Assembly (NCBI GenBank): GCA_044229975.1
Contig: JBGARZ010000001.1
Span: 480,001-544,000, forward strand
DNA from: Polyangiales bacterium
Lineage (GTDB): Bacteria > Myxococcota_A > Polyangia > Polyangiales > Ga0077539
Direction of reading: 5' to 3'
Length of the DNA: 64,000 bases
Shown in pieces: positions 4 to 34,118 of the stretch. The position numbers were made by a program, and so were the translations under genes. Below the pieces are notes generated by a model that saw only the letters and a list, made by a program, of their open reading frames with translations, was not told where the DNA came from and ran no database searches. Positions within the stretch are counted from its first letter, which is position 1. Every line of letters starts with the position of its first letter.

Positions 4-717
4 ATGCGCCGCCATGTCCCCACGGGCGTCACGTGGACGGCCCGCGTCGCGGTCGACCCGGCGGTGTTTCCGTGGCTGTCGGCGGGCGCTCCGCGACCGA
101 CGGCCCGCCCGGTGCGCCGCGCTCCGTGGTCGCCGCTCTCGCTGGTCTATGGCCTCGGCCTCGCCGCGGTGCTGCTCATCGCCGCCCAGGCCCTGCGCCG
201 CCTCGAAGGCCCCGCACGCCTCACCCTCCCCCGCGCGCTGCGCCCGCTCCCGGCGCTGCTCGCGATCGGCGCCGCGACGGCCCACTCCTTCGCCCTCACC
301 GGCACCCAGGGATGCGTCTCCGTGGGCACGGCCTGCCTCCTCGGGGCGGTCGTGCTCTCGCTCCCGCGCCGCGCCACGGGAGCGCGTCGCCGGGCGTCGC
401 CATGGATCACCTGGGGTCGTCGCGTCGTGCTCGCCGCGCTCGCGGTCGGCTTCGTGCTGGCCGTGCGCGCCCGGTCGACGCCCGGTCTCATCGGCGCGCT
501 CGACCTCGCCACGCTCGTCGTCGCCTCGATGGCCGTCTCGCTGCTGCGGACGCCCGTCGCGGTGCCGCGGCCTGCGATGCGCGCCCCGATGGTGTCGGCG
601 ACGCGCTCGCTGGGCCTCGACGACCTTCTCGTCAGCGCTTCGGCTGGAGCCGCTGGTGGAACATCTTCAGCGCATCGTCGACCTTCTTCACCGCGGAGCG
701 CACCGCCGCCGGCTTGA
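4..717 (+). CDS. Probable C-terminal part of a membrane protein (likely begins upstream of the window)
   Basis: Several hydrophobic stretches (LVYGLGLAAVLLIAA; VVLAALAVGFVLAV). The tail overlaps the convergent DUF1232 gene, so the 3' end is uncertain. Confidence 0.4.
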   Translation: MRRHVPTGVTWTARVAVDPAVFPWLSAGAPRPTARPVRRAPWSPLSLVYGLGLAAVLLIAAQALRRLEGPARLTLPRALRPLPALLAIGAATAHSFALTGTQGCVSVGTACLLGAVVLSLPRRATGARRRASPWITWGRRVVLAALAVGFVLAVRARSTPGLIGALDLATLVVASMAVSLLRTPVAVPRPAMRAPMVSATRSLGLDDLLVSASAGAAGGTSSAHRRPSSPRSAPPPA

Positions 718-1204
718 AGTCGAGCTTCAACGCGAAGACCGAGACCTCGGCGTCGAGCCAGCCGGGGTCGACCTTGCCCTGGGCGATCTCGCTCGCGCGG
801 CGGCCCTTGTACTCCACCTTCTCGATGGCGAAGACGCGCTGCCGGAAGGCCTCGTAGGTCACGTCGTCGAGCGACTCGCGAAACACCGCGAGGTCGTCGC
901 CCGCGCTCTCCACCAGCTCGGGGATGCGGTCGCGCCACGCGTCGAAGCGGTCGGGCGCCTCGCGGCGGACCTCGTCGAGGCCGATGCGCAGAGCCAGCGC
1001 GTCGTCGAGGTAGCCCATCACACCAATGGAGTCGGGGATCACGTCCCCGGGCATCAGCGCGTAGAACACCGCGCCGTGCACCTTCTCGCGCAGCGCGTCG
1101 CTGAGCTCGGGGTCATCGCACGCCACGCGGAAGTACTCCTTGAAGTCCATCTGAAGGCCGGTGAGCCACTTCTCTGCGATCGCATCCAGAACGTCGGTCG
1201 ACAT
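632..1204 (-). CDS. YkvA/DUF1232 family protein
   Basis: Motif FYALMPGDVIPDSIGVMGYLDDALAL matches the DUF1232 pattern Y..sP.D.IPD.....G..DD. ATG at 1204 (MSTDV). Confidence 0.8.
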   Translation of the reverse strand: MSTDVLDAIAEKWLTGLQMDFKEYFRVACDDPELSDALREKVHGAVFYALMPGDVIPDSIGVMGYLDDALALRIGLDEVRREAPDRFDAWRDRIPELVESAGDDLAVFRESLDDVTYEAFRQRVFAIEKVEYKGRRASEIAQGKVDPGWLDAEVSVFALKLDFKPAAVRSAVKKVDDALKMFHQRLQPKR

Positions 1205-1266
1205 GATGGCGCGACCATACCGCAAGGTGCCGCCGCGACACCACGCCATCGGGAGACGGTGGAGGA

Positions 1267-4200
1267 TCACTTCTCCGTGAGGGTCTCGACGCCGTCCCAG
1301 CCGGGCGGCGCGCGGTCGAGGCCCGACACGCCGAGGCGCCTCAGGAAGTGCTTCGGGAGCGGATCGTCGGGCACCTCCTCCTGGCACCGGACGAAGCCCC
1401 GCCTCGCCGCCGCGAGGTCTCCCGCGAAGAAGGCGTCCAGCGCCGCTTCGTGCGTCTCCAGGGTGCGACGCCGGGCGTCACGGATGGCCTCGGGTTCGCC
1501 GTCGAGCACCTCGTACAAGGTCAACGACTGCTGCCTGCCCACCACCCGCACGCGCCCCACCCGCCGCGTGGCGTAGCGCTCCGGGGCGCGCATGCGCTGC
1601 ATCGTCGACTCGGAGATGAGCACGCCGGCCTCGTAGCGACGGGTGAGGCCCTCGACGCGCGCGGCAAGGTTCACCGGGTCGCCGACCACCCCGCACTTCA
1701 ACGAACGACCGCCGCCGAGCGTCGCGAGCATGACCGTCCCCGTGTTGATGCCGACGCCCGTACGCACCGGCGCGAGGCCCTGCTCGCGGCGGGTGGCGTT
1801 GAAGCGCTCCAGGGCGCGGTGCATCGCCACGGCGCCCGCGACGGCGTCGTCGGCGTTGGAGCCCGCGGCGTCGAAGAGGGCCATGACCCCGTCGCCCAGG
1901 TAGGTGTCGACGAAGCCGCCGTTGCCCTGGATCGCCGGCTCGGCCACCGCAAAGTACGAGTTGACGAAGGTGAGCGCCTCGACCGCGGGCAGCCGCTCGG
2001 TGAGCGACGTGAACCCGCGGATGTCCGAGAAGAACACCGAGACCTCCTTCATGGCGTGGTCGCCCAGCTCGACCCCGACGATGTCGTCGCGGTCGAGGCT
2101 GCGGAGGAATTGGTACGGCACGAAACGATCCTGCGCGGCGTGCAGGCGGGCGTTGTGCACCGAGATGGCCACCTGCGGGGCGAGCACCTCCAGCACCCTC
2201 ACCCGCGCCGCCGTGAAGGCCCCCGCGGACAGGTCATTCTCGAAGTAGAGCACGCCCATGTCGCGCCCCTGGTGCTGCACCGGCGCGCACAGCACCGAGC
2301 GCGGACGCACCCGCTGGAGGTACGCGTCGCCCGCAAACTCCGGGGCCGCCGTGATGTCGTCGTGCACCTCCGCCACGCCGCGCCGGGACACGCGACGCAC
2401 CACCGTGGGCGGCACCCGCGCGCCGTCCTCGAAGGCAACACCACCGGGCAGGGTGACGGCGCCGCCGTCATCGGAGGTTCCTTCGGCTTCGATGACCAGC
2501 GCGCCGCGGGAGCGCAGGAGGAGGACACCGCGGCGGGCGCCCACGCTCTCCAGCAGGATGCTCATGGCGCGGGTGAGCAGGCGGTCGAGGTTGACCTCGC
2601 CCGAGATGGCCTGTGATGCCTTGAGCAGCGTGTCGAGGTCGAGCGTCGGGTCGGTGCGCGGCGCGCTCGCCGGAATCGCGGGCGCGAGGAGGTCACCGTG
2701 CAGGACGTCGATCTGCGCGACCTTCGCCGTCGCGCCCCAGCGCTGCCACGCGAAGCGCGCTTCGAGGAGGTACGCGCGGGCCACGCTGCGGGCGCCGCGG
2801 CCGAGGTGGAAGAGCCCCGCGCGCTCGTTGGCCAGCGCCTCGTCGTGGACGAAGCCGTTGGCCGCGGCGCGCGCGATGGCGTCGTCGAAGCGGGTGATGG
2901 CCGCGCCGACGTCGCCCTCCACCCGCGCGAGCTCGGCGTCGAAGAGGCTCAGCAGATGGCCGGCGTTGTCGGGTGCGCGATCGGCCGCGGCGGCGACCTC
3001 GACGCGCCAGACGCGCACCGCGGCGATGCGCTGGGCGCGGTCATCGAGGGAGAGCTCGTCCAGGCACGACAGCTCGGCGACGGCGGCGAGCACCCGCATC
3101 GCGCACTGGTAGACGATGGCCACCGCGCCGTCCTGAAACTCGAAGACCAGCCGAGCGGCCTCGGTGGCGCCGCGGTAGTCGCGGAAGATCACCCGCGCCG
3201 ACAGCATGCACACCGCCAGCACCAGGGCCGCCGCGCGGAAGCCGGTCTCGCGGTAGCGCGCGAGGCAGGTGGCCTCGTCGTAGTCGTCGTCGACGAGGCG
3301 CGAAGGGTTGGACGAGGCGCCGCGCAGGCAGCGCACGAGCAGGGCGATCTGCGCGGTGCAGTGGTAGGCGGCGTCGAGGCGGTGCTGGCGCATGAGCGCC
3401 GTCGCGCGACCGAGGCTCGCGGACTGCGCGTCGAGGCCGAGGCCCGAGAAGTAGCCGTACACGGACTGAGCGTGGAGGACCCAGCCGGCGTACTCGAGGT
3501 CGCCCGCGTCCATGAGCGAGCGCGCGAGCTCGGCGGCGGTGGCGTGGACGGGGCGCAGGGGTTCGGTCCACGGGCGGACGAAGTGGTTGACGACGTGGCG
3601 GGTGCGGGCGCCCGCGGCGGGGTCGGGGAGGCGTTCGAGGAGGCGCAGCGCGAGGCGGCCGTACTCGTAGCCGAGGCCGAGGTGCCAGCCCGCGCAGAGG
3701 CTCAGCGCCAGCACCGCGAAGCCGTAGCTGGACTCCCGCGACGCGCCCCGCTGCACCGTGCGCATCACGAGCTGCGCGCTGAGCAGCGGCAGGAGGTTGG
3801 GCGTCGCGACGTAGCTCGCCGACGAGATGCCCACGAGCATCTGGCGCGCGGCCTCCTCCAACGGGTCGTCGACCAGCGGGAGGGCCGCGAGCTCATCGGG
3901 CGTGCGGTGCCCGATGGCCGCGAGGGCGGCGCCGATGCCCGCGACGACGTCGGCGTGCGTGGGGTTGCGCGGCAGCGAGATGCCTACGCCTTCGAGGGCC
4001 GCGAGGGCGGCGGTGATGCCTTCCTGGAGTTCCCAGCGGGCGATCTGCGCCTGGATGAGCACCCAGCCCGCGTGCAGGTGATCGATGGGCCCGCCCGCTC
4101 GCGCCCGCAGCGCTTCGACGCGCGAGCGCATGAGCGCGTGCTCGCCCACCAGCCAGGCCGCCCGCGCCGCCAGCAGCCAGGTCGACCGCGCCCGCACGGG

Positions 4201-6540
4201 GTCGCGCTCCCACTGCGACGGGCCCGCGAGGTCGATGGCCGCTTCGAGGAGCTGGTGCGCCGTGGCGTACGCGGCGTTTTGCAGGGCACGACGACCGGCT
4301 TCGAGGTCGAGGTCGGCGATGGCGGCGCGCTCGGCGGGGTCATCGACGAGATCGAGCGCGGCGTTGAAGTGACCGGCGAGGCGGAAGAGGTCGGCCTCGG
4401 GTGAGGCCGCGGCGAGGCGGGCGCGCATGGCGCGGGCGATGGCGAGGCGGGTGCGCGCGGTCTCGTCGGCCGAGAGAAGCTCGCCCGCGGCTTGTTGGAT
4501 GCGATCGTGGACGAAGGCGAACTCCAGGTCGGGCGCGAGCGCGACGCCGGTGTCCCAGTAGTCGTCCTGCACCGGGACGACGAAGCGCCGGTCGACGGCG
4601 ACGCGGAGAGCATCACGCAGGTCGGCGGGCGAGAGCTGCGTGGCGGCGCGCACGAGCGCGAGGTCGAAGCGGGAGCCCACCCACGCGGCCGCGGAGAGGC
4701 AGCGGCGGGCGTCGCCCGAGAGGGCGTCGAGGTCGCGGCGGAGGAGCACCACGACGTTGTCGGTGATGGCGTGGGCGCGGACGGCGGGGAGGTCCCAGCG
4801 CCACGCGAGGGCGTCGCGGTCGAAGCGCAGCGCGCCGGTGGTGCCGAGCTCCTCGACGAGGCGGCGCAGGAAGAAGGGGTTACCGGCGGTCTTGGCGTGC
4901 AGCAGCGCGGCGAGGTCGGCGGTGGTCTCGGCGGGCACGCGCAACGCGTCGGCGAGGATGCGTCGGACGTCGGCCACGAGCAGGGGGCCGAGGTGCAGGC
5001 GCTCGACGCGGGTTCCGGAGGCGCGGAGCGCGTCGATGGTGGGGACGAGGGCGTGGTCGTGGGAGACGTCGGTGTCGCGCCACGCACCGACGAGGAGGAG
5101 GTGGCTGAGGTCGGGGTCGCGGAAGAGCGTCTCGATGAGGCGCAGCGAGGCGAGGTCGGCCCACTGGAGGTCGTCGAGGAAGAGCACCACCGCGCGACCG
5201 GGCTGGGCGACGACGCGGAAGGTGCGGCGGAAGGTCTCCTGCACGCGCTGCTCGGACTCGGTGGGGTCGAGCTCGGCGAGGGGTGGCTGTGGACCGAGCA
5301 GGGCGCCCGCGCCGGCGACCATGTCCGTGAGCAGACGACCGTTGGGGCCGAGCGCTTCGAGGAGGCGGTCGCGCCACGCCGTCACGCCCGCGAGCGGTTC
5401 GGAGAGGGCGTCGCGGAAGAAGCCCGCGAGCGCCTGCGACAGCGCCGCGAAGGGGACGCCGCGCGAGTACTGATCGAACTTGCCGAGGAGCAGACGCGCG
5501 CCCGCGACGGTGGCCGGGCGGTGCAGCTCGAACACCAGCGACGTCTTGCCGATGCCGGGTTCGCCGGAGAGGAGCACCGCGCCGCGGGCGCCGCCGACGG
5601 TGTCGTCGAGGGCGGCGGTGAGTCGCGCGAGCTCGGCCTCGCGGCCGTGGAGGTCTTGCGGAAACTCCAGGCGCGCGCTGAGCGATCGGCCGACGAGCTG
5701 AACGCTCGGCGCCGCGACGCCGAGCGCGACGGCGTCGAGGCAGCGGCGCAGGTCGAGGGCGACCCCGGCGGCGCTCTGGTAGCGCTCCTCGGGGCGCTTG
5801 CGCAGCAGGGTCATCACGATCTCGGCGACGGCGGGCGGGAGCGCACGAACCCGTGGGCCGAGCGGCGCAGGCTCGCGGGCGAGGTGCGCGTGGACGAACT
5901 CCAAGAGGTCGGCGCACTCGAAGGGGGTGCAGCCGGCGAAGAGCTCGTAGAGCGTCGCGCCGAGGGCGTAGAGGTCGGCGCGGGCGTCGACGGCGCGGTT
6001 CATCCGGCCGGTCTGCTCGGGCGCGAGGTAGGCGGGCGTCCCTTCGATGGCGGACAGCGGGCGCGGGCTCGCGACGCCGTGGCTGAGCCGCGACGAGAGG
6101 CCGAAGTCGATGAGCCGCACCTCGCCCGTCGCCATCGACACCAGGAGGTTGGAGGGGTTGATGTCGCGGTGCAGGACGTCCTGCGCGTGGATGCGCTCGA
6201 TGCCTTCGGCGACGCGCAACGCGAGCGAGACGGACTCCGCCACGCCGAGGGCGCGACCCGCGAGCAGCGAGCTCAAGGGGACGTCGCCGCGGTCGTCCAT
6301 CACGATCTGCGCGACGCCGTCGTGCACCTCGAAGCCCACCACGCCGGGCGCGCCGACGCCGCCGACGGAGGCGAGCATGTCGTGCTCCCGACGGAAGCGC
6401 GCGAGCTCGGCGTCGGCAGGGAAGGCGCCGCGGAGCTGCTTGACCACCACCATGCGCTGATCGGAGCGACGGCGCGCGCGGGTCACCCGGCTGTGGGCTC
6501 CCTCGTGCAGCACCTCGACGTGTTCGTAGACGGCTTCCAC
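1267..6540 (-). CDS. Multidomain Ser/Thr kinase / P-loop (AAA_16, STAND-like) NTPase / helical repeats / GAF / class III nucleotidyl cyclase
   Basis: Kinase: VVVK, HRDINPSN, DFG, GTPAYLAPEQTGRMNR. Walker A GEPGIGKT, Walker B LFLDDLQWAD. GAF: RSVLCAPVQHQGRDMGVLYFEN. Cyclase: FSDIRGFT, YLGDGVMA, GINTG, GDPVNLAARVEG. GTG start with GAGGGG upstream. Confidence 0.93.
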   Translation of the reverse strand: MEAVYEHVEVLHEGAHSRVTRARRRSDQRMVVVKQLRGAFPADAELARFRREHDMLASVGGVGAPGVVGFEVHDGVAQIVMDDRGDVPLSSLLAGRALGVAESVSLALRVAEGIERIHAQDVLHRDINPSNLLVSMATGEVRLIDFGLSSRLSHGVASPRPLSAIEGTPAYLAPEQTGRMNRAVDARADLYALGATLYELFAGCTPFECADLLEFVHAHLAREPAPLGPRVRALPPAVAEIVMTLLRKRPEERYQSAAGVALDLRRCLDAVALGVAAPSVQLVGRSLSARLEFPQDLHGREAELARLTAALDDTVGGARGAVLLSGEPGIGKTSLVFELHRPATVAGARLLLGKFDQYSRGVPFAALSQALAGFFRDALSEPLAGVTAWRDRLLEALGPNGRLLTDMVAGAGALLGPQPPLAELDPTESEQRVQETFRRTFRVVAQPGRAVVLFLDDLQWADLASLRLIETLFRDPDLSHLLLVGAWRDTDVSHDHALVPTIDALRASGTRVERLHLGPLLVADVRRILADALRVPAETTADLAALLHAKTAGNPFFLRRLVEELGTTGALRFDRDALAWRWDLPAVRAHAITDNVVVLLRRDLDALSGDARRCLSAAAWVGSRFDLALVRAATQLSPADLRDALRVAVDRRFVVPVQDDYWDTGVALAPDLEFAFVHDRIQQAAGELLSADETARTRLAIARAMRARLAAASPEADLFRLAGHFNAALDLVDDPAERAAIADLDLEAGRRALQNAAYATAHQLLEAAIDLAGPSQWERDPVRARSTWLLAARAAWLVGEHALMRSRVEALRARAGGPIDHLHAGWVLIQAQIARWELQEGITAALAALEGVGISLPRNPTHADVVAGIGAALAAIGHRTPDELAALPLVDDPLEEAARQMLVGISSASYVATPNLLPLLSAQLVMRTVQRGASRESSYGFAVLALSLCAGWHLGLGYEYGRLALRLLERLPDPAAGARTRHVVNHFVRPWTEPLRPVHATAAELARSLMDAGDLEYAGWVLHAQSVYGYFSGLGLDAQSASLGRATALMRQHRLDAAYHCTAQIALLVRCLRGASSNPSRLVDDDYDEATCLARYRETGFRAAALVLAVCMLSARVIFRDYRGATEAARLVFEFQDGAVAIVYQCAMRVLAAVAELSCLDELSLDDRAQRIAAVRVWRVEVAAAADRAPDNAGHLLSLFDAELARVEGDVGAAITRFDDAIARAAANGFVHDEALANERAGLFHLGRGARSVARAYLLEARFAWQRWGATAKVAQIDVLHGDLLAPAIPASAPRTDPTLDLDTLLKASQAISGEVNLDRLLTRAMSILLESVGARRGVLLLRSRGALVIEAEGTSDDGGAVTLPGGVAFEDGARVPPTVVRRVSRRGVAEVHDDITAAPEFAGDAYLQRVRPRSVLCAPVQHQGRDMGVLYFENDLSAGAFTAARVRVLEVLAPQVAISVHNARLHAAQDRFVPYQFLRSLDRDDIVGVELGDHAMKEVSVFFSDIRGFTSLTERLPAVEALTFVNSYFAVAEPAIQGNGGFVDTYLGDGVMALFDAAGSNADDAVAGAVAMHRALERFNATRREQGLAPVRTGVGINTGTVMLATLGGGRSLKCGVVGDPVNLAARVEGLTRRYEAGVLISESTMQRMRAPERYATRRVGRVRVVGRQQSLTLYEVLDGEPEAIRDARRRTLETHEAALDAFFAGDLAAARRGFVRCQEEVPDDPLPKHFLRRLGVSGLDRAPPGWDGVETLTEK

Positions 6541-6549
6541 GTTCGCCCC

Positions 6550-8223
6550 TCAGACGTGGATGCTCTGGGCGACCCGCGACGGGAGCAGGTACGGAAAGCG
6601 CCACTGCCGACCGGCGTCGCGCATCACGCTCTCGGCCTCGATGGTCGCCAGCTCGTCGCGCAACGCCGTCGCCAGCGCCTCGACCCGCGGGTCATCGAAC
6701 CAACCCGGGGGGAACTCCCCCAGGGTGTTGAGTCGCAGCTCGCGCTGCGGGAGCGTGAGGTCGAGCATGCGGTTGGCGATGCCGAGCGGCGCAAGGGCGC
6801 GGAGGTAGTCGTCGGAGGTTGGTTCTTGCGCGGGGTCGAGCGGAGGCGCCCAGAGAGCCGACGGGTAGGTCGCCGCCCACGCGTACTGGTCGTAGCCGTT
6901 GTAGTTGACCGCCGCGTGCCCGGCCGTGATCTGGAAGATCACCGTCGTCACGAGGTCGACGAGCTCATCGATCGTCGCGAGCGAAGGGAGGTCGTGCAGC
7001 GTCGCGCCGTCCGCGGCACCGAGCGCCGCATGCCAGGCGACGAGCTCGGGGTCGCGCGAGAGATCGGCGTCGCTCGTGTACCAGAGCCGGAGGTAGCCAT
7101 CGACCCAGCGGCGCAGCGCGTGCGCGATGGGCATGCCGTCGTCGCGGAAGGGGTACTCGGGCAGGGCGTCGACGTCGTCGCAGCCGCGCAGGGCGAGGTC
7201 GCGCCACGGGGCCGCGTCGCGCATCGAGCGCGAGCGGATGACCTGCACCGCGAGGTCGATGGACGCCTCGCGCGTCGGGGCGAGGAGCTCGTCGAAGTAG
7301 CCGCCGACCCCGATGACGTCGGTCTTCATGGTCTCGTTGGCGGCGGCGGTCATCTCGAAGTGCGGCCACAGGAGCCGACGCAGCGGGTGCTGCGGAGCGA
7401 GCTCACGCGCGGTGCAGACCTGCACACCGCCCGCGATGGAGTGGCAGATGCCGAGGTGCATCACCGCGCCGGCCCACACCGAGTCCGCGGCGTTGACGCC
7501 GAGGCGCGCGAGCCGCCAGCGCTCACCGTCGGCGGGCGTGTAGATGGGACCGCCCGCCGCGGTGCGCTGGATGGCCACCGGGCGCAAGGCGCCGTCGAGG
7601 GTGCGGACGAACAGCGCCAAGGGGCTATCGCAGTAGCGGGGATAGCCCTGCGTCGCGCCCATCGGGACACCCGCCAGGGCCGAGAGGTCGAGCACGTAGA
7701 CGCGTCCCTCGGCGCGCGCCCGGTCGAGCGAGTCGCCGTCTCCGATGGCCGCGCGGAGGTGATCGTCGGTCACCGGGAAGCGCGGGTCGGCCTCGCGCTG
7801 TCGCCGCAGGTGGGTGGAGTTGCAGCCCGCGACCCGCTGCCACGCGAAGAAGCCGTCGTCATTGGAGAAGTCCTGGTAGGCCGTCGCGGGCAGCGTGTGG
7901 AAGAGGCCGTCGTAGTGCTGCTCGGCCTCCAGGGCGACCATGCTGCGCTCGGCGACCCCGTTGCTCACGTTGGGCATCCCGATCTGGGCGTGCACGCGGA
8001 GCAGGCGCGGGTCGAGCGCCGCCGCGACGCGGGTGCTGGCCAGCATGCTCTGGAGCTTGACGACCTTGAGCACGTACGCCGGGGTGTAGCGGTCGGACGC
8101 GGACTTCGCGGCGAGGGGGAGGCCCCGCTGGTCGGGGTCGAAGCGCCACTGCACGCGCTCGGCTTCGAGGGCGGCGCGGCGGGCTTCGGGGGCGGGGTCT
8201 TCGTGCGGGAGGGAGGCGTTCAT
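6550..8223 (-). CDS. Lipoxygenase family protein (divergent active site)
   Basis: QRVAGCN, PVAIQ, iron ligands HLGICH and HAAVN, YPFRDDG, C-terminal YLLPSRVAQSIHV. No signal peptide or PLAT domain. Confidence 0.92.
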   Translation of the reverse strand: MNASLPHEDPAPEARRAALEAERVQWRFDPDQRGLPLAAKSASDRYTPAYVLKVVKLQSMLASTRVAAALDPRLLRVHAQIGMPNVSNGVAERSMVALEAEQHYDGLFHTLPATAYQDFSNDDGFFAWQRVAGCNSTHLRRQREADPRFPVTDDHLRAAIGDGDSLDRARAEGRVYVLDLSALAGVPMGATQGYPRYCDSPLALFVRTLDGALRPVAIQRTAAGGPIYTPADGERWRLARLGVNAADSVWAGAVMHLGICHSIAGGVQVCTARELAPQHPLRRLLWPHFEMTAAANETMKTDVIGVGGYFDELLAPTREASIDLAVQVIRSRSMRDAAPWRDLALRGCDDVDALPEYPFRDDGMPIAHALRRWVDGYLRLWYTSDADLSRDPELVAWHAALGAADGATLHDLPSLATIDELVDLVTTVIFQITAGHAAVNYNGYDQYAWAATYPSALWAPPLDPAQEPTSDDYLRALAPLGIANRMLDLTLPQRELRLNTLGEFPPGWFDDPRVEALATALRDELATIEAESVMRDAGRQWRFPYLLPSRVAQSIHV

Positions 8224-8279
8224 CGCGGCGGTCCTTTGCAGTGGATTCCCCCCACCGAGGCGGACGGACGGACGGCGGG

Positions 8280-10058
8280 TCAGATGATGATCGAGGCCGG
8301 GACGAGCGACGGGCGCAGGTAGCCGTACGGGAGCGTACGGTGAGCCTCCCGCGCGACGATGTCGGACTCCAACGATGCGAGGCGGGCGCGCATCGCCGAC
8401 AGCGGTGCCGCGACGCGTGGGTCATCGAACTTCGGGTAGTCGGCCAGCGCCGTGACGCGAATCGCCGAGAGCTGAAACACCGTGTACATCTGGAGCACGG
8501 TCACATCGAGGGGCGGCAGCGCGGCGATGTACGCCGCCTCGGTGTCGGGCGTCGCGAGGGTGGGCGGCGGCGCATAGAGCCCGGCGGCGATGCCGGGCAT
8601 GAAGCCCATGGTGGGGTACTGCGGGAAGTTGACGGCCGCGTGCTGCACCGAGCCGGTGAAGATCACGAAGGTGAGCAGCCCCGTGAGCGCGTCGACGGTC
8701 TGCACCGCGGGGACGCCCAGCAGGCGGCCGCCGTCGCGCGCCGAGAGCTCGGCGACGAAGTTCTGGAGCTCGGTGTCGCCCGCCACGACGGAGTCGTCGC
8801 GATAGTACAGCCGGAGGTAATCGCCCACCCACGTGCGCAGCGAGTCCCAGTGCGGGAGCGCGTCGTCGCGGTAGGGGAAGTCGGGCACGCAGTCGGCGTC
8901 GAGGAGGCCCTGCGACGCGAGGCGCGAGCGCGGGTCGGCGCGGCCGATGTCGAGCGTGCGGACGGCCTCGGCGGTGAGATCGCGCGTGATCGCGATGGGC
9001 TGCGGCATGAGCTGGTCGAGCGTTCCGCCGTCGGCGATGAGGCTGTTGCGCGCGGTGTAGTTGATGAAGTGCGTGACCTTGAAGTGCGGAGCGAGCAGCA
9101 CCGCGACCGGGTGGGCCGAGGCGAGGTTGCGGTTGGCCGCGATGGCGAAGGGCTCGACGACGAGGTGCGTGCGACCGAGGTGCTCGCGGGCCTCGTGCAG
9201 GCTCCCCTCGCCCAGCGAGAGGAAGGCCTGCGCGATGCGCCAGCGCCAGCCGTCGGCGGGCGTGAAGATCGGGGCCGCGGCGCCGGGCGTCTGGGCGCAC
9301 TGGATGGCGACCGGGAGCATCGCGGCCGAGCGGTCGAGCGGGCGCACGAAGAGCCCCATCGCGGCGGCGGTGTACTTCTTCCGACCGGCGTTTTCGGTGG
9401 TGGCGACGCCGGCGAGGGCGGCGCAGTCGGAGAGAAACAGCCGCCCCTCGGCGAGCGCACGTGCGAGGGAGTCGGCGGGCCCGCGCGGGAGCAGCGTAGC
9501 GAGGGCACGGGAGAAGTGCCCCTCGTCGACCGGGAAGTGGTCGGGCAGACGATCGCGCAGCTGCTGGAGGGTGAAGGGGTTGGGGCCCGCGAGCTCGTGC
9601 CAGCCGAAGACGAGGTCGCGGTCGGCGGGCGCCTTGCGGAGCCGCGCGACCATGGGGATGGCTTCGAGGCCGTCGGTGAGCGAGCCGAAGGTGTCGAGCG
9701 AGGTGACGGGCTGCTTCGCCGTGTCAGCCGCGGCTTTTTCAGTGGCGTCCCAGAAGTTGCGCGCGGCCTCGACGGAGCTGCGCGCCGCGATGACCGCGAC
9801 CTCCAGCGGCTTCGCGCGATCGGCCTTCCGGGCGGCGTCGACCTGCAGCGAGACGTGGTGGTCGGAGACGCGGTCGTTGGAGCGCGCGATGGCGACCAGG
9901 TAGTCGACGCCGGGCTTGTCGGTGAAGTGCAGCTCCTTCAGGCAGGCGATGCCGGGTGGGCTGCTGTAGTCGTACTGGCGTTCGGCGCGGCGCACCGCGA
10001 GCAGCTCGCGTCGCACCATGGGAAACGGGTCATCCGGGCTTAGGGTCGGCACGGGCAT
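8280..10058 (-). CDS. Lipoxygenase (canonical motifs)
   Basis: LAGPNP, LPVAIQ, HEAREHLGRTH, INYTAR, FPYRDDA, QHAAVNFPQY, C-terminal YLRPSLVPASIII. ATG 10058 (MPVPTLSPDDP) with GGGAG upstream; the longer track ORF runs into ompA. Confidence 0.95.
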   Translation of the reverse strand: MPVPTLSPDDPFPMVRRELLAVRRAERQYDYSSPPGIACLKELHFTDKPGVDYLVAIARSNDRVSDHHVSLQVDAARKADRAKPLEVAVIAARSSVEAARNFWDATEKAAADTAKQPVTSLDTFGSLTDGLEAIPMVARLRKAPADRDLVFGWHELAGPNPFTLQQLRDRLPDHFPVDEGHFSRALATLLPRGPADSLARALAEGRLFLSDCAALAGVATTENAGRKKYTAAAMGLFVRPLDRSAAMLPVAIQCAQTPGAAAPIFTPADGWRWRIAQAFLSLGEGSLHEAREHLGRTHLVVEPFAIAANRNLASAHPVAVLLAPHFKVTHFINYTARNSLIADGGTLDQLMPQPIAITRDLTAEAVRTLDIGRADPRSRLASQGLLDADCVPDFPYRDDALPHWDSLRTWVGDYLRLYYRDDSVVAGDTELQNFVAELSARDGGRLLGVPAVQTVDALTGLLTFVIFTGSVQHAAVNFPQYPTMGFMPGIAAGLYAPPPTLATPDTEAAYIAALPPLDVTVLQMYTVFQLSAIRVTALADYPKFDDPRVAAPLSAMRARLASLESDIVAREAHRTLPYGYLRPSLVPASIII

Positions 10059-10195: not shown

Positions 10196-12118
10196 TCAGC
10201 GCAGGTCGCGGTCTTCGTCGGGGATGAGATCCTCGCCCGCCGGGCAGGCGATCTGCACGTGCGTGAGCCCGGCCGACGTCCGCAGGATGAGGAACACCAC
10301 GCGACGATTGGCCGTCCACGCCACGCGGTTGTGCGCGGGGTTGATGGGGCAGCGCTCGCCGTAGCCCGCGGCGTGGAGGCGGTCGTTGGAGATGCCGCGC
10401 TGCACGAGGGCCGCGACCACGCTGGCGGCGCGGTCGCGGGTGAGCTGGAGGTTGTGGTCGTCGTTGCCGCGCTCGTCGGCGTGACCCTGCACCTGGAGCA
10501 GCTGGATCTGGTCGTTGGCCCGCAGCGTCGCCGCGACGGCCTCGATGATGGGCAGGCTCTCCGGGCGAATCTGCGCCGAGTCGGTCTCGAAGTTGATCGC
10601 CTGGAGGATGCGGATGGTGTTTTCCTCCAGCACGGCGACGCCGGTGTCGGGGCAGCCGTCTTCGTCCTCGTGGGCGTTGTAGGTCTCCGGGTCGTTGGGG
10701 CAGCGGTCGCGCACGTCGGGGATGCGATCGTGGTCGTTGTCCGGGTCGGGGCAGCCGTTGTCGTCCTCGAAGTTGTCGCGGTCTTCGGGGTCGTTGGGGC
10801 AGAGGTCGTCGCGGTCGACGATGCCGTCGCGGTCGTTGTCCGGGTCGGGGCAGCCGTCGATGTCCTCGAAGTTGTCTCGGTCTTCGGGGTTGTCCGGGCA
10901 CTGGTCGACGTTGTCGAGGATGCCGTCGCCGTCGCGGTCGTTGTTGTCACGATCGGGGCAGCCGTCCTCGTCGGCCTCGCCGTCGCGGTCTTCCGGCGTG
11001 AGGGGGCACTGGTCGTCGCCGTCGCGGATGCCGTCCTGGTCGTTGTCGGGCTCAGGACACCCGTCGCTGTCTTCGAAGTGGTCGAAGTCCTCGGGCTCGT
11101 TGGGGCACTGGTCGATGTCGTCGCGGTACCCGTCGCCATCACGGTCGCCGATGGACGGCTCGAACACGAAGCCGATGAAGGCCCGCAGATCGGCCGCCGC
11201 GTCGCTGCCGGTGATGCGACGACCCGCGCCGAGCATCAGGTAGCTGTTGTCGACAACGAAGATCTTGAGCCCGCCGACGGCCTCGAAGGGCGTGGTGTTG
11301 GCCCCGAACATCGCGTTGGAATACGTCCCACCGTAAACCTCGGCGACGAGATCGACGGCGGTGCCGAGGCGCACGCTCATGCCGAGGCCCGCGGTGAGGG
11401 GCGAGCCGTAGGTCGTGTTGAGGAGCGTCGCGGCGTTGCCGAGGCCGAGGCGGTAGCCAAGGTTGAGGTCCATGCGGAAGCGCGAGACCGGGTGCCACTC
11501 GGCGGCGATGGAGGGCCAGAGCATCACGCCGGGGTCGCCCGCGAAGTTGCTCGGGCCCGACTGGAGGGGGATGCCCGCCTGGAAGACGAGCGCGAGGCCC
11601 CAGTGCGTCACGGTCGCGGGGAGCAGTCGTAGCTTGGCGTGGAGGGTGAGCGAGCCGAAGCCCTGGTAGTCGAGGCCGCCGACCCCCGGGGTGTATCCCG
11701 CGATGGGCTGGAGCGCGCCGTCGGAGCCCATGGGCCCAGGGCCGCCGACGAGGTGCACGGGGAGCTGGAGGCCGACCACGAGGCGGTTGAAGAGACCGAG
11801 GTTGGCCGAGAACACGCCGGTGAACATGTTCTCGACGAGCGGCACGTTGGTGTCGGTCTGCGTGCCGTTGACGAGCGTTCCCTGACGGGCGAGGCCGCGA
11901 CCCCAGTCGACGACGAGGCCGAAGGAGGTGTTGAGGTGCCCGAGGGTGTCGGTGCCGTTGACGGTGAACTGTCCCTTGGAGTCCACCGCGTGGCGGAACA
12001 ACCTCAGATCGAAGCCCGTGTCCGCGGGGAGCGCGTCCTGCGCGCGCGCCTCCGTGGCGAAGGCCGTGAGGGCAAGGGAAGCGACGAGGCCCGAGAGGTA
12101 TCCCACCGTTCTACGCAT
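10196..12118 (-). CDS. OmpA family outer-membrane protein with thrombospondin type-3 repeats (TraB-like architecture)
   Basis: Signal peptide (ARA-Q), beta-rich N-terminal barrel, DxDxDGxxDxxDxCP repeats, C-terminal OmpA-like domain (INFETDSA, VQGHADERG, NLQLTRDRA, GYGE, NRRV). Confidence 0.92.
   Translation of the reverse strand: MRRTVGYLSGLVASLALTAFATEARAQDALPADTGFDLRLFRHAVDSKGQFTVNGTDTLGHLNTSFGLVVDWGRGLARQGTLVNGTQTDTNVPLVENMFTGVFSANLGLFNRLVVGLQLPVHLVGGPGPMGSDGALQPIAGYTPGVGGLDYQGFGSLTLHAKLRLLPATVTHWGLALVFQAGIPLQSGPSNFAGDPGVMLWPSIAAEWHPVSRFRMDLNLGYRLGLGNAATLLNTTYGSPLTAGLGMSVRLGTAVDLVAEVYGGTYSNAMFGANTTPFEAVGGLKIFVVDNSYLMLGAGRRITGSDAAADLRAFIGFVFEPSIGDRDGDGYRDDIDQCPNEPEDFDHFEDSDGCPEPDNDQDGIRDGDDQCPLTPEDRDGEADEDGCPDRDNNDRDGDGILDNVDQCPDNPEDRDNFEDIDGCPDPDNDRDGIVDRDDLCPNDPEDRDNFEDDNGCPDPDNDHDRIPDVRDRCPNDPETYNAHEDEDGCPDTGVAVLEENTIRILQAINFETDSAQIRPESLPIIEAVAATLRANDQIQLLQVQGHADERGNDDHNLQLTRDRAASVVAALVQRGISNDRLHAAGYGERCPINPAHNRVAWTANRRVVFLILRTSAGLTHVQIACPAGEDLIPDEDRDLR
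10649..11148 (-). repeat. Thrombospondin type-3 (Ca-binding) coding repeats
   Basis: Five tandem units of D.D.DG..D..D.CP..PED.D.FED.DGCP within ompA. Boundaries approximate. Confidence 0.85.
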
Positions 12119-14856: not shown

Positions 14857-17800
14857 GTGACCGCGGCGACGCCACTGCCTCCCGAAGATCCTCCCCACGC
14901 CGAGCACCTCGGCCCCGAGCGCCTCGACGCGGTCGCGCTACGTCTCGCGCGCGAACACACGGGCAGCACGCGCCCGGCGACGCGACACAGCGACGTGCTC
15001 ACACGCCTGGAGGACAACCGTCGGCAGCTCGTCGACAACTACCGCGCGACGCTCAAGGCCGCCGAGTCGGGCGGCTGGATCTCCCCCGCGGGCGAGTGGC
15101 TGCTCGACAACTTCCACGTCATCGCCGAGCAGCTCCGCGAGGGCCGCGAGAACCTCCCGCGCCGCTTCTACCGCGAGCTCCCCGAGCTCTCCGAGGGACC
15201 GCACGCCGGGTATCCCCGCGCCTTCGCCATCGCCATCGAGCTCATCACCAACACCGACGGGCTCCTCGACGTCGCGCTGCTGGAACGCTTCCTCACCGCC
15301 TACCAGTCCGTCACTCCGCTCACCGTCGGCGAGCTCTGGGCGATCCCCATCGCGCTGCGCCATGCGTTTCTCGACCGCCTCGCGAAGATCGCCGCCCGCG
15401 TCGACACCGCGCGCCGCGAGCGCGAGGCCGCCGAGGCCCTCGCCGACGAGCTCGCCCTCATCGCCACCAGCGGCCCCGACACCGTCGCCGTCGCCCTGGA
15501 GCGCCGCGTCTCCAGGCGCGTTCGACCGTCGACGACCATGTTCGCGACCGAGCTCGCGCTGCGCCTGCGCGACCGCCACCCCGCGCTCGCACTCGCCACC
15601 GCGTGGCTGGAGCGGCGCATCCTCGAACAGGGGACCACGCTCGACGAGGCCATCCGCGCCGAGCACCGCAGCCAGGCCGCCAACCAGATCTCCGTCGGCA
15701 ACTGCATCACCTCGATGCGCACCATCACGGCCACCGACTGGACCAAGGTCTTCGAGTCGCTGAGCGTCGTCGAGCAGGTGCTCCGCCGCGACCCGTCGGG
15801 CACGCACCCGCTTCAGGACTTCGCCACCCGCGACCGCTACCGCCACGTCATCGAGCGCATCGGCAAGCGCACCGGCCGCCCCGAACACGAGGTCGCCGAG
15901 GCCGCCATCACGATTGCCCGCGCGGCCTTCGAGCGCGCCGGGGAGATCGTCGAGACCCCGCGCGAAGCCCACGTCGGCTACTACCTCGTCGGCCCCGGTC
16001 TCGCCGCGCTGGAGTCCGCCGTCGGCTACCAGGCACCGCCCATCGAGCGCTTCGGTCGCGCGCTTCTCGCCCACGCGACGATCGCCTACCTCGGGCCCAT
16101 CATCCTCGGCAGCCCGCTGCTCGCCGCAGGCTTCGCCGCGTGGGCGCACGAGCTCGGCGCCTCCCCGGGGGCCGCCGTCGCATTGGGTGTCCTCGCGCTG
16201 CTCCCCGCGAGTGAGCTCGTGAGCGGGCTCGCCAACCTCGTCGCCACCGCGGCCCGTGCGCCCGTCGCGTTGCCCAAGCTCGACTTCGCCGACGGCATCC
16301 ACACCGACTTCCGCACCCTCGTCGTGGTGCCGATGATGCTCGGCAGCCGCGAGGGCATCGACGAACAGGTCGAGGCCCTGGAGCTGCGGTACCTCGCCAA
16401 TCAAGACCCCGCGCTCCGCTTCGCGCTGCTCAGTGACTTTCCGGACGCCTCGACCGAGCGAGCGGCGGGCGACGACGAGCTCCTCGCCGCGGCCGAGGCG
16501 GGCATCCTCCGACTCGGTCGGCAGTACGGCGTTGGGCGCTTCTACCTGCTGCACCGGCGACGCGTCTGGAGCGACGGCGAGCAGCGCTTCATGGGCTGGG
16601 AACGCAAGCGCGGAAAGGTCACCGAGCTCAACAAGCTCATCCTCGACGAAGGCGAGACGACCTTCAGCTCCGTCGTCGGTGACCGCGCGTGGCTCGCGGG
16701 CATTCGCTTCGTGCTCACGCTCGACGCCGACACCCAGCTCCCGCTCGGCACCGCCGCCCGCCTCGTCGGAACCCTCGCCCACCCGCTCAACCGCCCGCGC
16801 ATCGACCCGACGACCGGGGTCGTCGTCGAGGGCCATGGCGTGCTGCAGCCGCGGGTCTCGGTGTCGCCCACGTCGGCGCGGCGCAGCCTCTTCGCGCGCA
16901 TCTTCGCGTCGCAGGAGGGCATCGACCCGTACACCAGCGCCGTCTCCGACGTGTATCAAGACCTCTTCGCGGAAGGGTCCTTCGTCGGCAAGGGGCTCTA
17001 CGACGTGCGGGCCTTCGAGGCGACGCTGCGCGACCGCGTTCCAGAGGCGGCGGTGCTCTCGCACGATCTCCTCGAAGGGCTCTACGCCCGCGCGGCGCTG
17101 GTCTCCGACGTCGAGCTCTACGACGACACACCGTCGCACTACCTCGCAGCCAGTCTTCGTCGGCATCGCTGGATTCGCGGCGACTGGCAGATCGCCCCGT
17201 GGCTCGGCTCGTCACCGCCGCGCGCCGACGGCAAGCGCGAGGGCAACCCCCTCTCCGCCATCGGGCGCTGGAAGGTGCTCGACAACCTCCGCCGCTCGCT
17301 CGTCGCACCGTCCACCCTCGGCCTCCTCCTCGTCGGCTGGATCATCGTCCCCGCCCCCGTCGCCTGGACCGCCATGGTCGCCGTGCTCCTCGCGCTGCCG
17401 ACCTTCGCCCACTGGTCGTCGACGGCCGTGCGACGGCCGCGGCGCGCCACATGGTCCGTGCACCTCCGCCGCGTCACCGTCGACGCCGCCCACAACGCGC
17501 TCCGCTCGGCGGTGAACCTGCTCTTCCTGCCGCACGAGGCGTGGGTGAGCGTCGACGCCGTCGCGCGGGTGTTCTATCGCCGCTACGTCTCCCACCGCGG
17601 GATGCTGGAGTGGGTCACCGCCGCGCAGGCCGAGCGCGCGGGTCGCACCATCTCGCAGGCGTGGCGCGCCATGGGGCCGTCGCTCGCTCCCGTGGTGATC
17701 GCCTTCGCCATCGCGGCGCGACTCGACGGCTGGCCCGTCACCGCGCTCGCCCCGCTTGCGCTCGCGTGGTTGCTCTCACCCGCGATCGCGGCGTGGTTCG

Positions 17801-34000: not shown

Positions 34001-34118
34001 CTTCACGGCGGTGTTGCGCGAGCGACCCGAGGTGGCGGCGGGCGTGCTGCGGGTGCTCTCCCGGCGACTGCGCGCGGCCAACCTCAGCGCCGACCACACC
34101 GCGGACCCGCCGCGGTGA
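31014..34118 (+). CDS. Npt1/Npt2-like nucleotide transporter fused to HEAT repeats and a cyclic-nucleotide-binding domain
   Basis: RDALFL, QFWTSAGDRFSPREARRVFGLIAAGG, LLDFQYK, LLYLPVP (NTT/TLC-like MFS). HEAT repeats (D.D..VR..A). cNMP domain VFREGDRGDALY...FGEMSLLDAEARSATA. Confidence 0.9.
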   Translation: MTPGRGARRAEAVLLFAWNYSAVSAYFAGRAVRDALFLAHESPSRLPLMYVVSPLAVSVVGFAYSRVADRVRRDHIVQATALLFAALLTAAWLSLGPRWIYYALYAGVEVMGAMLMMQFWTSAGDRFSPREARRVFGLIAAGGTVANITVGLALARLVGRTGAEPMLLVCAGFLVAVALLARALARHPGARTAPSPRTPARTAATPSSTTPPGAGHLRLLGPMIACAVLASTLLDFQYKTLATQSFHGDRVAMLRFFATLSSGVGAVSLLVQFFVTSRLLERFGVAGALMLYPGTLGLSAAGMLAAPSLASAAVSKFGDVFRYTVHDAAMQLLYLPVPAAERGRRKATLDGIIKPCTEALAGASLFAYRALSGALAPLAALTAIVTVLWVLAILRMRPAYARSLAETLRRRRLSAGVPDEALALDLAQAVRGALDSADPAELRHGLDLAPLAPRPLAASLRALVDHPDADVRARALACLAAGTVPIDDDALDRSLAHADPAVRAEAARAATGTQITRVAPLLDDPEAAVVAAAAGVLHAHGDRERVVARVETLLVDGDAAVRTLGLLVARTVANPALLPALIARFDDPREARRALEAAAAVGPAAEPALVAALAQPDRAPAAVRALGLLGRPSSINHVAAALSHDDERVRDAACEALSRAATRDDPPDLPGDAMLVACETDLARAFTAMAAAAGLGRAESALMSDGTRALVPYRPDEVDGPAALISRALRERGERARNRVFLLLGALEPELDVPTVRENLDEPDPVRRANAVELLDAGAWRGRAGTIKSLVITLVDESPRELKLSAVSRRLKLPARARDGWVTALLDDPNAWMAACAAYYAGAAGVVSARPKLDALTRDPRAVVRETATRACATLDRGPGDTKEEGAMITTAEKVLFLKGIELFAAVPSEDLVEIAAITTEVAADESEEVFREGDRGDALYLVVDGSVRVERGGRTLAVLGVRDVFGEMSLLDAEARSATAVAVSGLTLLRIGRDDFTAVLRERPEVAAGVLRVLSRRLRAANLSADHTADPPR

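Follow-up and report, generated by a model that had tools for sequence, protein, structure and literature searches.

Lipoxygenases of bacteria are suspected to be signalling enzymes of multicellular taxa (10.1101/2022.06.21.497025, in the part available), and the main text of a 2026 review devoted to them contains neither the word "receptor" nor the word "operon" (PMC13319228). The cyanobacterial dual kinases HstK/cbSTKIII and the fungal group X kinases combine an N-terminal Ser/Thr kinase with a GAF domain and a C-terminal output; the accessible sections of PMC2176072 list one kinase-GAF-cyclase form, Tery_2857, and name neither a ligand nor a lipoxygenase partner for these families. Here we describe a locus in which the same order of domains occurs beside two lipoxygenase (LOX) genes. 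It lies in a 64,000-nt stretch of the genome of a Polyangiales bacterium (assembly GCA_044229975.1, contig JBGARZ010000001.1, positions 480,001 to 544,000; hereafter the window) and consists of LOX-A, LOX-B and a kinase-STAND-GAF-cyclase gene, whose product we call the STAND protein and take to be of the HstK/SWACOS type. HstK/cbSTKIII proteins typically end in a histidine kinase, whereas the window protein ends in a cyclase and only 3 of its 40 LOX-linked relatives end in a histidine kinase. The cassette is real, conserved and apparently undescribed, and we read it as a two-step oxylipin synthase together with its cognate cytoplasmic receptor, with a probability of roughly 0.55. A literature search, from whose scope most subscription papers and supplements fell, found no description of a LOX-STAND cassette or of LOX-B. 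The word "lipoxygenase" is absent from the main texts of 10.64898/2026.01.04.697583 and PMC8195603, the latter of which names the SWACOS clade in the part available; their supplementary clade and neighbourhood tables could list the present clade.

The cassette comprises the following genes.

8280-10058, reverse strand: LOX-A, a lipoxygenase of 592 aa (Pfam PF00305, E 3.7e-48).
6550-8223, reverse strand: LOX-B, a lipoxygenase of a divergent subfamily, 557 aa (PF00305, E 1.5e-32).
1267-6540, reverse strand: kinase-STAND-GAF-cyclase protein of 1757 aa (Pfam Pkinase, AAA_16, GAF, Guanylate_cyc).

The first-pass annotation had described four co-oriented reading frames with gaps of 56, 9 and 62 nt, and their coordinates and Pfam domains were all reproduced. 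A candidate for the ribosome-binding site it had placed in the 9-nt gap is a purine-rich GAGGGG overlapping the LOX-B stop codon just 5' of the GTG start of the STAND gene. From the gaps of 9-56 nt, and from the stop-start overlap seen in 6/42 relatives, we infer that the cassette is co-transcribed; a promoter scan of the region returned 0 sigma-70-like sites and no informative terminator, and no RNA holder is on record for it, which has no bearing on whether it is expressed. All three proteins are predicted to be cytoplasmic, as had been proposed: neither LOX has an N-terminal hydrophobic stretch, and the STAND protein has no obvious transmembrane segment (by hydropathy scan rather than signal-peptide predictor), its maximum over a 19-residue window (1.98, at 1101) falling within a predicted repeat helix.

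The linkage of LOX and kinase-cyclase genes, whose absence elsewhere the annotation had named as counting against it, recurs in other genomes and survives rearrangement. In a GTDB-wide scan with an alignment of LOX-A, 171 relatives were confirmed; among the best 80 of these a kinase-NTPase-helical gene lies within the fetched DNA at 37/41 multi-LOX loci, against 0/38 single-LOX loci and 0/1 locus with a truncated LOX and a catalase-like gene. At least 3 kb was available on both sides of 28/38 single-LOX loci, and 3/4 of the multi-LOX misses end at contig edges. Split by phylum label, which can be wrong for metagenome-assembled genomes, a STAND gene is present at 26/30 multi-LOX versus 0/9 other loci in Myxococcota, at 2/2 versus 0/19 in Cyanobacteriota and at 6/6 versus 0/7 in Pseudomonadota. 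In an even sample of the phylum, LOX occurs in 40/401 genomes. A second set of 40 LOX loci, which overlaps with the first (39 from the 401-genome sample and one from the same genus, with four weak-hit genomes left out), has an adjacent STAND gene at 10/13 multi-LOX loci, 7/8 loci with a LOX and a catalase-like protein or P450, and 0/19 single-LOX loci. After removal of 23 duplicate or frameshifted loci, 42 multi-LOX loci with a STAND gene remain; the LOXs precede it in 26 and follow it in 10, and the arrangement is convergent in 5 and divergent in 1. Since the helical domain of the STAND protein is found in only two proteins of the 10 Mb genome, both of them encoded beside a LOX, the adjacency is more than chance. 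On a FastTree phylogeny of 81 LOX-A rows (67 scored, 14 truncated rows left out) the second LOX changes 5 times and the presence of the STAND gene 6 times, and independent pairs agree 4/4. LOX-B and the STAND gene have been lost together in L135, L157, L175 and L179.

Three further observations concern these loci. L172 holds three LOXs and two adjacent histidine kinase genes without a STAND gene, possibly a replacement of the receptor. A clade of small LOXs (L084, L086, L087) lies beside an FAD-linked oxidase in 3/3 cases, with no STAND match in the fetched DNA, although two of the three loci are near contig ends. The cassettes of L036 and L044 contain several frameshifts, which reflect either decay or sequencing error.

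The STAND protein is divided as follows.

5731-6540, reverse strand: Ser/Thr kinase domain, residues 1-270 (Pkinase, E 8.8e-32).
4441-5670, reverse strand: STAND nucleotide-binding and oligomerisation module, residues 291-700 (AAA_16, E 4.6e-35; match to the MalT nucleotide-binding oligomerisation domain, NOD).
2671-4440, reverse strand: predicted helical arm (about 701-900) and MalT-like superhelical sensor (about 929-1290), from an AlphaFold2 model and column and co-divergence analyses.
2158-2592, reverse strand: GAF domain, residues 1317-1461 (Pfam GAF, E 5.4e-12).
1519-2052, reverse strand: class III nucleotide cyclase, residues 1497-1674 (Guanylate_cyc, E 1.3e-14).

The kinase has K34, HRD124 and DFG145, with a degenerate glycine loop. 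We take the motif set of STAND NTPases to be Walker A, Walker B, an N-terminal GRE and GxP; GRE299, Walker A (326-333), Walker B (455-460) and GNP553 are all intact. In the model the nucleotide-binding domain (NBD), helical domain (HD) and winged-helix domain (WHD) are followed by the arm and the repeat sensor, so that on motifs and model the earlier "STAND-like switch" is a STAND.

In a FastTree phylogeny of 87 NTPase-helical cores the window protein falls within a clade of 43 (support 0.981), and 40/43 members lie beside two or three LOXs. The outputs of these 40 vary: 15 have a cyclase of the window type, 15 have neither GAF nor cyclase, 3 have a histidine kinase, 3 have GAF and another output (a different cyclase in L058, PAS with AAA_35 in L168), and 4 are truncated at contig ends. 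The cyclic nucleotide output expected at first is therefore optional: the window protein ends in a cyclase, but more than half of the linked STANDs either lack the GAF and cyclase or carry something else in their place. Several relatives have unusual arrangements. In L140 (9323-11727) and L144 (3232-4515) a receiver-cyclase gene adjoins a LOX-linked STAND that ends in a histidine kinase, the cyanobacterial copies L168 (959-12510) and L173 have an AAA_35 gene upstream, and L100:4116-14857 carries tandem duplicate STAND-cyclases, the first copy lacking the catalytic Asp and Asn residues.

The helical region is where the relation to the LOXs is most apparent. In the AlphaFold2 model of residues 291-1290 (pLDDT 92) the sensor (929-1290) has its best match in MalT domain III (1hz4; Z 21.9, rmsd 4.3, 335 aligned), the NOD matches that of MalT (8bob; Z 18.6, rmsd 4.5, 385 aligned), and the PH0952-type tetratricopeptide-repeat (TPR) STAND 6mfv matches at Z 18.1, where chance structural scores between helical repeats reach about Z 13. 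MalT scores above the immune STANDs. The link to MalT rests on the model because a PDB sequence search with the NTPase-helical part returned nothing below E 0.06. When 36 clade members are compared with 39 others, with 12 near-duplicates thinned out, 23/25 clade-specific columns lie in the helical part. Columns tracking the cargo, i.e., the neighbouring enzymes, amount to 20/259 in residues 901-1160 versus 4/691 in the kinase, NBD and HD/WHD. Among GAF-bearing members (20 vs 39), 15/260 columns of the sensor are clade-specific versus 0/172 of the GAF domain. The clade-specific columns of the helical part lie mostly on every second helix (937-950, 974-987, 1015-1031, 1056-1072, 1102-1118) and in the loop 1137-1142; the LOX-clade residues on the alternate helices are F941, H982, W1020, H1023, R1116, D1137 and G1138. 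We infer from this pattern that the alternate helices are the inner ones, which in the model would line a groove.

Co-divergence points to the same region. Over 28 loci, the pairwise identity of the sensor correlates with that of LOX-B and LOX-A at rho 0.60 and 0.56, respectively, followed by the arm (0.45, 0.39), HD/WHD (0.35, 0.40), NBD (0.30, 0.41), the last helices (0.19, 0.27) and the kinase (0.02, 0.03); shared descent raises all of these values, and it is the contrast between regions that carries the meaning. In MalT, sensor and arm jointly bind maltotriose, whereupon the NOD opens (PMC4381067, available sections). The arm and superhelical sensor of the window protein are predicted to form its ligand-binding part, with the helical MalT-like domain, not the GAF, as the candidate sensor. 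A role of GAF as the specific sensor is disfavoured, as it has 0/172 clade-specific columns and is absent from 15/40 LOX-linked relatives.

As the annotation had noted, one LOX is canonical and the other divergent; both retain their metal ligands. LOX-A has H293, H298, H473, N477 and a C-terminal Ile, with E289 and Q480 in the second shell and Ala336 at the Coffa site, all invariant in 12/12 sequences of the LOX-A clade; it is canonical, with an S-type product predicted. We take the second-shell Glu/Gln pair to correspond to Q495/Q697 of soybean LOX. LOX-B has the ligands H256, H261, H436, N440 and a C-terminal Val, with G252 and G443 in the second shell, C260, and Met299 at the Coffa site. 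Its model (pLDDT 93.9) has the full LOX fold (5med; Z 47.0, rmsd 1.6, 533 aligned), and in the LOX tree it belongs to a clade of its own (support 0.964). In 39 LOX-B sequences chosen by motif and tree, the three His and the Asn ligands are invariant (39/39), Gly replaces Glu before the first His in 36/39, Gln follows the Asn in 0/39, and the C-terminus is Val in 30/39; Cys replaces Thr before the second His in 33/39, a count inflated by the use of the Cys motif in the choice. In four of them (L033, L034, L035, L038) the spacing between the first two His is shorter by one residue, presumably as in fungal manganese LOXs, and their metal may differ. The Coffa site holds Ala in 19, Met in 9, Thr in 6, Cys in 3 and Leu in 2 sequences. 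LOX-B as a dead enzyme is disfavoured, as all metal ligands and the full fold are kept. According to the available parts of the sources, Val is accepted as a C-terminal metal ligand of LOXs (PMC13059375), hydroperoxide isomerase activity is favoured by a narrowed oxygen channel (PMC13319228), and eLOX3 is an isomerase downstream of 12R-LOX (PMC13059375).

A second hydroperoxide-handling enzyme nearly always accompanies LOX and STAND, whether as LOX-B, a protein similar to the coral allene oxide synthase (AOS; 1u5u, E 5e-30; nine loci: L031, L046, L062, L063, L066, L072, L074, L079, L080) or a P450 with plant AOS as its top Atlas match (0.98; two loci: L089, L122). The AOS likeness of the L089 P450 would follow from the Atlas match and a motif; in the PDB it has weak P450 matches only, with no CYP74 among the best 60. 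Because other STAND clades have an AOS-like protein or a P450 as their second gene, we place LOX-B, by analogy, in the slot of a second-step enzyme that would convert hydroperoxides.

Some of the sister loci deserve separate mention. At L089:11946-15063, L088:9053-11978 and L122 a P450 is paired with a divergent LOX clade, resembling the plant LOX-CYP74 pair in bacteria. Within the same genome, L031:9450-18706 (C19) has a coral AOS-like gene and a LOX divergent from a kinase-STAND-GAF-cyclase whose base-selecting cyclase residues differ again (Gln and Arg-Gly). On C39:206362-212491, likewise in this genome, a highly divergent LOX-like gene faces a P450 that by eye resembles that of L089, near a desaturase; neither of the two STANDs of this type in the genome lies on C39.

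The association extends beyond LOXs. Among 40 further kinase-STAND-GAF-cyclase loci, being high-scoring matches not already known to flank a LOX, 26 have a small-molecule enzyme gene within two genes, counted in categories set by the author (oxygenase, flavin oxidoreductase, P450, desaturase, terpene cyclase, patatin, NRPS/PKS) and with neighbour genes assigned from one scanned representative per cluster. Two of these partners are divergent LOXs (L122, L124). As a control, the same criterion applied to 20 of the 21 other STAND-like loci in this genome finds such a gene at 4/20 (strict) or 6/20 (loose); Fisher p is 0.002 or 0.014, with kinship uncontrolled. The partner follows the STAND clade for IDO-cNMP, NRPS/PKS and the HpnE-like flavin enzyme with cNMP-ADC (cNMP, cyclic nucleotide monophosphate; ADC, acetoacetate decarboxylase-like), and RPE65 is more scattered. 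As 14/40 loci have no callable small-molecule partner, the receptor can stand alone. Fusions of enzymes to cNMP-binding domains lie beside STAND-cyclases both for IDO (L114, 3764-6418; L116; L120) and for ADC (L103, 3871-5211; L094; L096; L107), which suggests feedback from the cyclase to the enzyme.

The cyclase of the window protein has the catalytic residues D1506 and D1550 (metal), N1624 and R1628, and T1546 and K1615-x-G1617 at the base-selecting positions. The canonical base-selecting pair of adenylyl cyclases is Lys and Thr/Asp, and on residue comparison the window cyclase has neither the adenylyl nor the guanylyl cyclase signature. Its closest solved relative is Cya2 of Synechocystis (2w01, E 3e-26), which shares K-x-G at the second specificity site but has Glu488 where the window cyclase has Thr; according to the accessible part of PMC5995499, Glu488 sets the use of GTP and E488K converts Cya2 to an adenylyl cyclase. 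We expect cGMP or a mixed output, with low confidence. V1667 stands where four close relatives keep Lys, so that the enzyme may be less active. Of the 27 cNMP-binding matches in the genome, none lies within the cassette. At 31014-34118 of the window, 21 kb from the cassette, lies an MFS-HEAT-cNMP-binding protein, a possible target of a cyclic nucleotide.

The extent of the cassette becomes clear from its flanks.

632-1204, reverse strand: DUF1232 gene, 190 aa, a resident flanking gene outside the cassette.
1205-1266, no strand: right insertion border, a remnant of the ancestral OmpA-DUF1232 spacer (alignment with the spacer of relatives).
10196-12118, reverse strand: OmpA-family gene, the resident gene on the other flank, outside the cassette.

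DUF1232 had been counted as the fourth member of the operon. This does not hold, as it adjoins 0/42 multi-LOX loci with a STAND gene (36/42 of which had at least 1 kb beyond the STAND gene, where it could show) and sits behind OmpA in 5/5 relatives; DUF1232 and OmpA are rejected as members of the module, being resident neighbours of each other in relatives. An OmpA-like gene directly abuts DUF1232 in 5/5 same-genus genomes, the DUF1232 orthologues (74-82% identical) are in 5/5 relatives on contigs other than that of the cassette, and the STAND-DUF1232 spacer of the window aligns with the 3' part of the OmpA-DUF1232 spacer (four relatives aligned). Because OmpA abuts DUF1232 in relatives, a remnant of the ancestral spacer is kept and DUF1232 occurs at none of the 42 loci, the cassette is an insertion of three genes (LOX-A, LOX-B, STAND; 8.9 kb) at a site where relatives have no insert. 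In six genomes of the same genus the cassette lies at another location. Identity to relatives is 80-90% for the flanking OmpA, 53-84% for the LOXs and STAND domains of the cassette, and 63-70% for LOX-A of close relatives. In the same-genus loci L033, L034, L035, L036 and L037 the cassette is flanked by ClpB-like AAA+ genes of about 1120 aa (in L035 at 3005-6388 and 15428-18763) and a Ser/Thr kinase. Elsewhere in the window, 14857-23322 encodes a 2821-aa protein with a glucoamylase-like and two GH94 domains, an architecture we assume to be typical of cyclic beta-1,2-glucan synthase-like proteins.

Under the reading that we prefer, LOX-A would take a polyunsaturated fatty acid, probably one made by the cell itself, and oxygenate it to an S-hydroperoxide. 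A host-made substrate is plausible, as the genome has a PfaD match over cut-off next to two large PKS-like reading frames (C10:41580-58439) and 12 desaturase matches over cut-off; PfaD co-occurs with LOX in 27/40 LOX genomes versus 91/361 others, with kinship uncontrolled, a comparison that speaks to plausibility only. LOX-B would convert the product of LOX-A, most likely as an eLOX3-like hydroperoxide isomerase yielding an epoxy-alcohol or ketone, which we propose because of its intact metal site, altered second shell and bulky Met at the oxygen-channel position. The product would bind in the groove of arm and sensor and, as in MalT, open the nucleotide module for exchange of ADP for ATP and oligomerisation, which in turn would activate the N-terminal kinase and pair the C-terminal cyclase domains. 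The resulting cyclic nucleotide is probably not, or not only, cAMP.

Several observations weigh against this reading. The contrast test comprises only four independent contrasts (p 0.125), and the large linkage counts may rest on one origin and few losses. Within the fetched DNA, the multi-LOX loci L172, L056, L060 and L061 lack a STAND, and L092, L098 (a short contig) and L099 have a STAND of the clade and no LOX. Fast-evolving repeat domains are expected to give some clade-specific columns, for which the outer helices and the C-terminal helices (2/119) are only a partial control. The co-divergence is equally consistent with direct protein binding. The isomerase step is weak because the Coffa site of LOX-B is more often Ala (19/39) than Met (9/39). 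Of 10 tandem-cassette genomes checked, 2 have no PfaD match.

The strongest alternatives, both of which we consider unlikely, change what the STAND protein senses. In the first of these it would recognise a LOX protein instead of its product: LOX-B would bind the sensor or NOD as an inducer or inhibitor, and its substrate-bound state would set the switch. MalY holding MalT and the Avs sensors gripping phage proteins are analogies, in most co-oriented loci LOX-B is the gene next to the STAND gene, with stop/start overlap in several, it is lost together with the STAND gene, and the co-divergence of the sensor with LOX-B would fit; enzymes that inhibit MalT are described in the available part of PMC10427625. 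This is opposed by the retention of all four side-chain metal ligands in 39/39 LOX-Bs and by the sensor tracking LOX-A almost as well as LOX-B. Moreover, the enzymes paired with the STAND family have unrelated folds (catalase-like, P450, RPE65, IDO, PKS, desaturase), among which small hydrophobic products are likelier to be shared than a surface, and because the folds of the cargo enzymes are so varied, small-molecule sensing is favoured over protein binding.

The second alternative, about which we are similarly sceptical, reverses the order of events. The STAND protein would sense free polyunsaturated fatty acid, peroxide or membrane damage and switch on the LOXs by phosphorylation, through the cyclic nucleotide or at the level of gene expression, and the oxylipin would have its effect elsewhere. 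The fusion of sister-cassette enzymes to cNMP-binding domains (IDO-cNMP, cNMP-ADC) is consistent with such a direction, although the same fusions would arise if feedback were added to the preferred synthase-and-receptor reading, and the LOXs themselves have no cNMP-binding domain in Pfam. The fungal group X kinases presumably share the architecture of the window protein. These related kinases act in oxidative stress (PMC4965123, in the part available). Against this alternative, the kinase domain does not diverge in step with the LOXs that it would phosphorylate (rho 0.02-0.03), and output domains are exchanged freely without loss of the LOXs.

A role in anti-phage defence or programmed death, in which the STAND protein would sense an infection and the LOXs would either kill by peroxidising the membrane or produce an alarm lipid, appears quite improbable. 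The STAND-TPR architecture resembles Avs3 (Foldseek E 7e-8), the distribution is patchy with insertion at a new site, and the cyclase has non-canonical base-selecting residues and a domain-level PycC match (66.9 bits). However, MalT outscores the immune STANDs, PADLOC has no match for LOX-A, LOX-B or DUF1232 and covers only the kinase or cyclase domains of the STAND protein, the cassette includes no cNMP-gated effector gene, its neighbours in the window are housekeeping genes, and the sister cassettes carry biosynthetic enzymes and not toxins. Hitch-hiking of a single ancestral block without functional coupling would agree with the single clade of LOX-linked STANDs (43 rows, support 0.981) and the non-significant contrast test, but is hardly credible, since the genes occur in four orders, members of the clade are about 30-35% identical, outputs have been exchanged, and additional STAND clades are linked to other clades of LOX.

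Returning to the reading of a synthase with its receptor, we tentatively extend it to a proposal that we hold at somewhat less than even odds: bacteria may have a large and so far undescribed family of private hormone systems, each pairing a kinase-STAND receptor that senses through a MalT-like domain with a neighbouring gene for synthesis of the ligand, i.e., oxylipins (by a LOX pair, LOX and AOS-like or LOX and CYP74-like enzymes), apocarotenoids (RPE65), tryptophan oxidation products (IDO), terpenoids, or NRPS/PKS lipids. The present cassette would be the oxylipin branch, LOX-B a new ligand-making subfamily and the STAND protein the first bacterial receptor for a lipoxygenase-made signal. 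If true, this would give the orphan HstK/Chk1-like kinase-STAND proteins their first ligand class and add a LOX subfamily of possible use in biocatalysis. In the cassette the STAND protein is the candidate receptor, with H982, W1020, H1023 and R1116 as its candidate pocket, LOX-B is the candidate second enzyme, and the read-out would be enzymatic.

The placement of a synthase gene beside that of its receptor is a logic known from LuxI/LuxR. For oxylipins it is seen in the ODS of Pseudomonas aeruginosa (OdsAB-OdsR), a two-enzyme pathway with an adjacent receptor gene (PMC6377657, available sections); ODS, however, uses periplasmic haem diol synthases and a LysR regulator, whereas the LOXs of the window are non-haem and predicted to be cytoplasmic, and no parts are homologous. 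A LOX followed by a second enzyme that uses the hydroperoxide is known from mammalian 12R-LOX/eLOX3 (PMC13059375, in part) and the coral AOS-LOX fusion, for which the accessible sources describe no STAND receptor, and an isomerase role of LOX-B is only predicted. The TOMM system kinase/cyclase fusion (TIGR03903), named after a biosynthetic cluster, sets a precedent for joining kinase, cyclase and NTPase in one protein. It is tied to peptide (TOMM) clusters, matches the window protein weakly and over the NTPase (143.8 bits, cut-off 705.75), and presumably differs in domain order. From the Pycsar and Avs defence systems the cassette differs in having no adjacent cNMP-gated effector and no full-length PADLOC model match. 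The closest parallel in fold is MalT of E. coli, which has the NOD, arm and superhelical sensor in common with the window protein and reads a small inducer with sensor and arm (PMC4381067, available sections); its inducer is a sugar and its output DNA binding, whereas the outputs of the window protein are a kinase and a cyclase, and identity is 12-16%. What is known already, then, is the STAND of HstK/SWACOS type, the LOX, the class III cyclase and the logic of synthase and receptor; what is new is the form with two LOXs in tandem, LOX-B as a subfamily, the borders of the insertion, the finding that the output can be dispensed with, and the assignment of specificity to a sensor resembling that of MalT.

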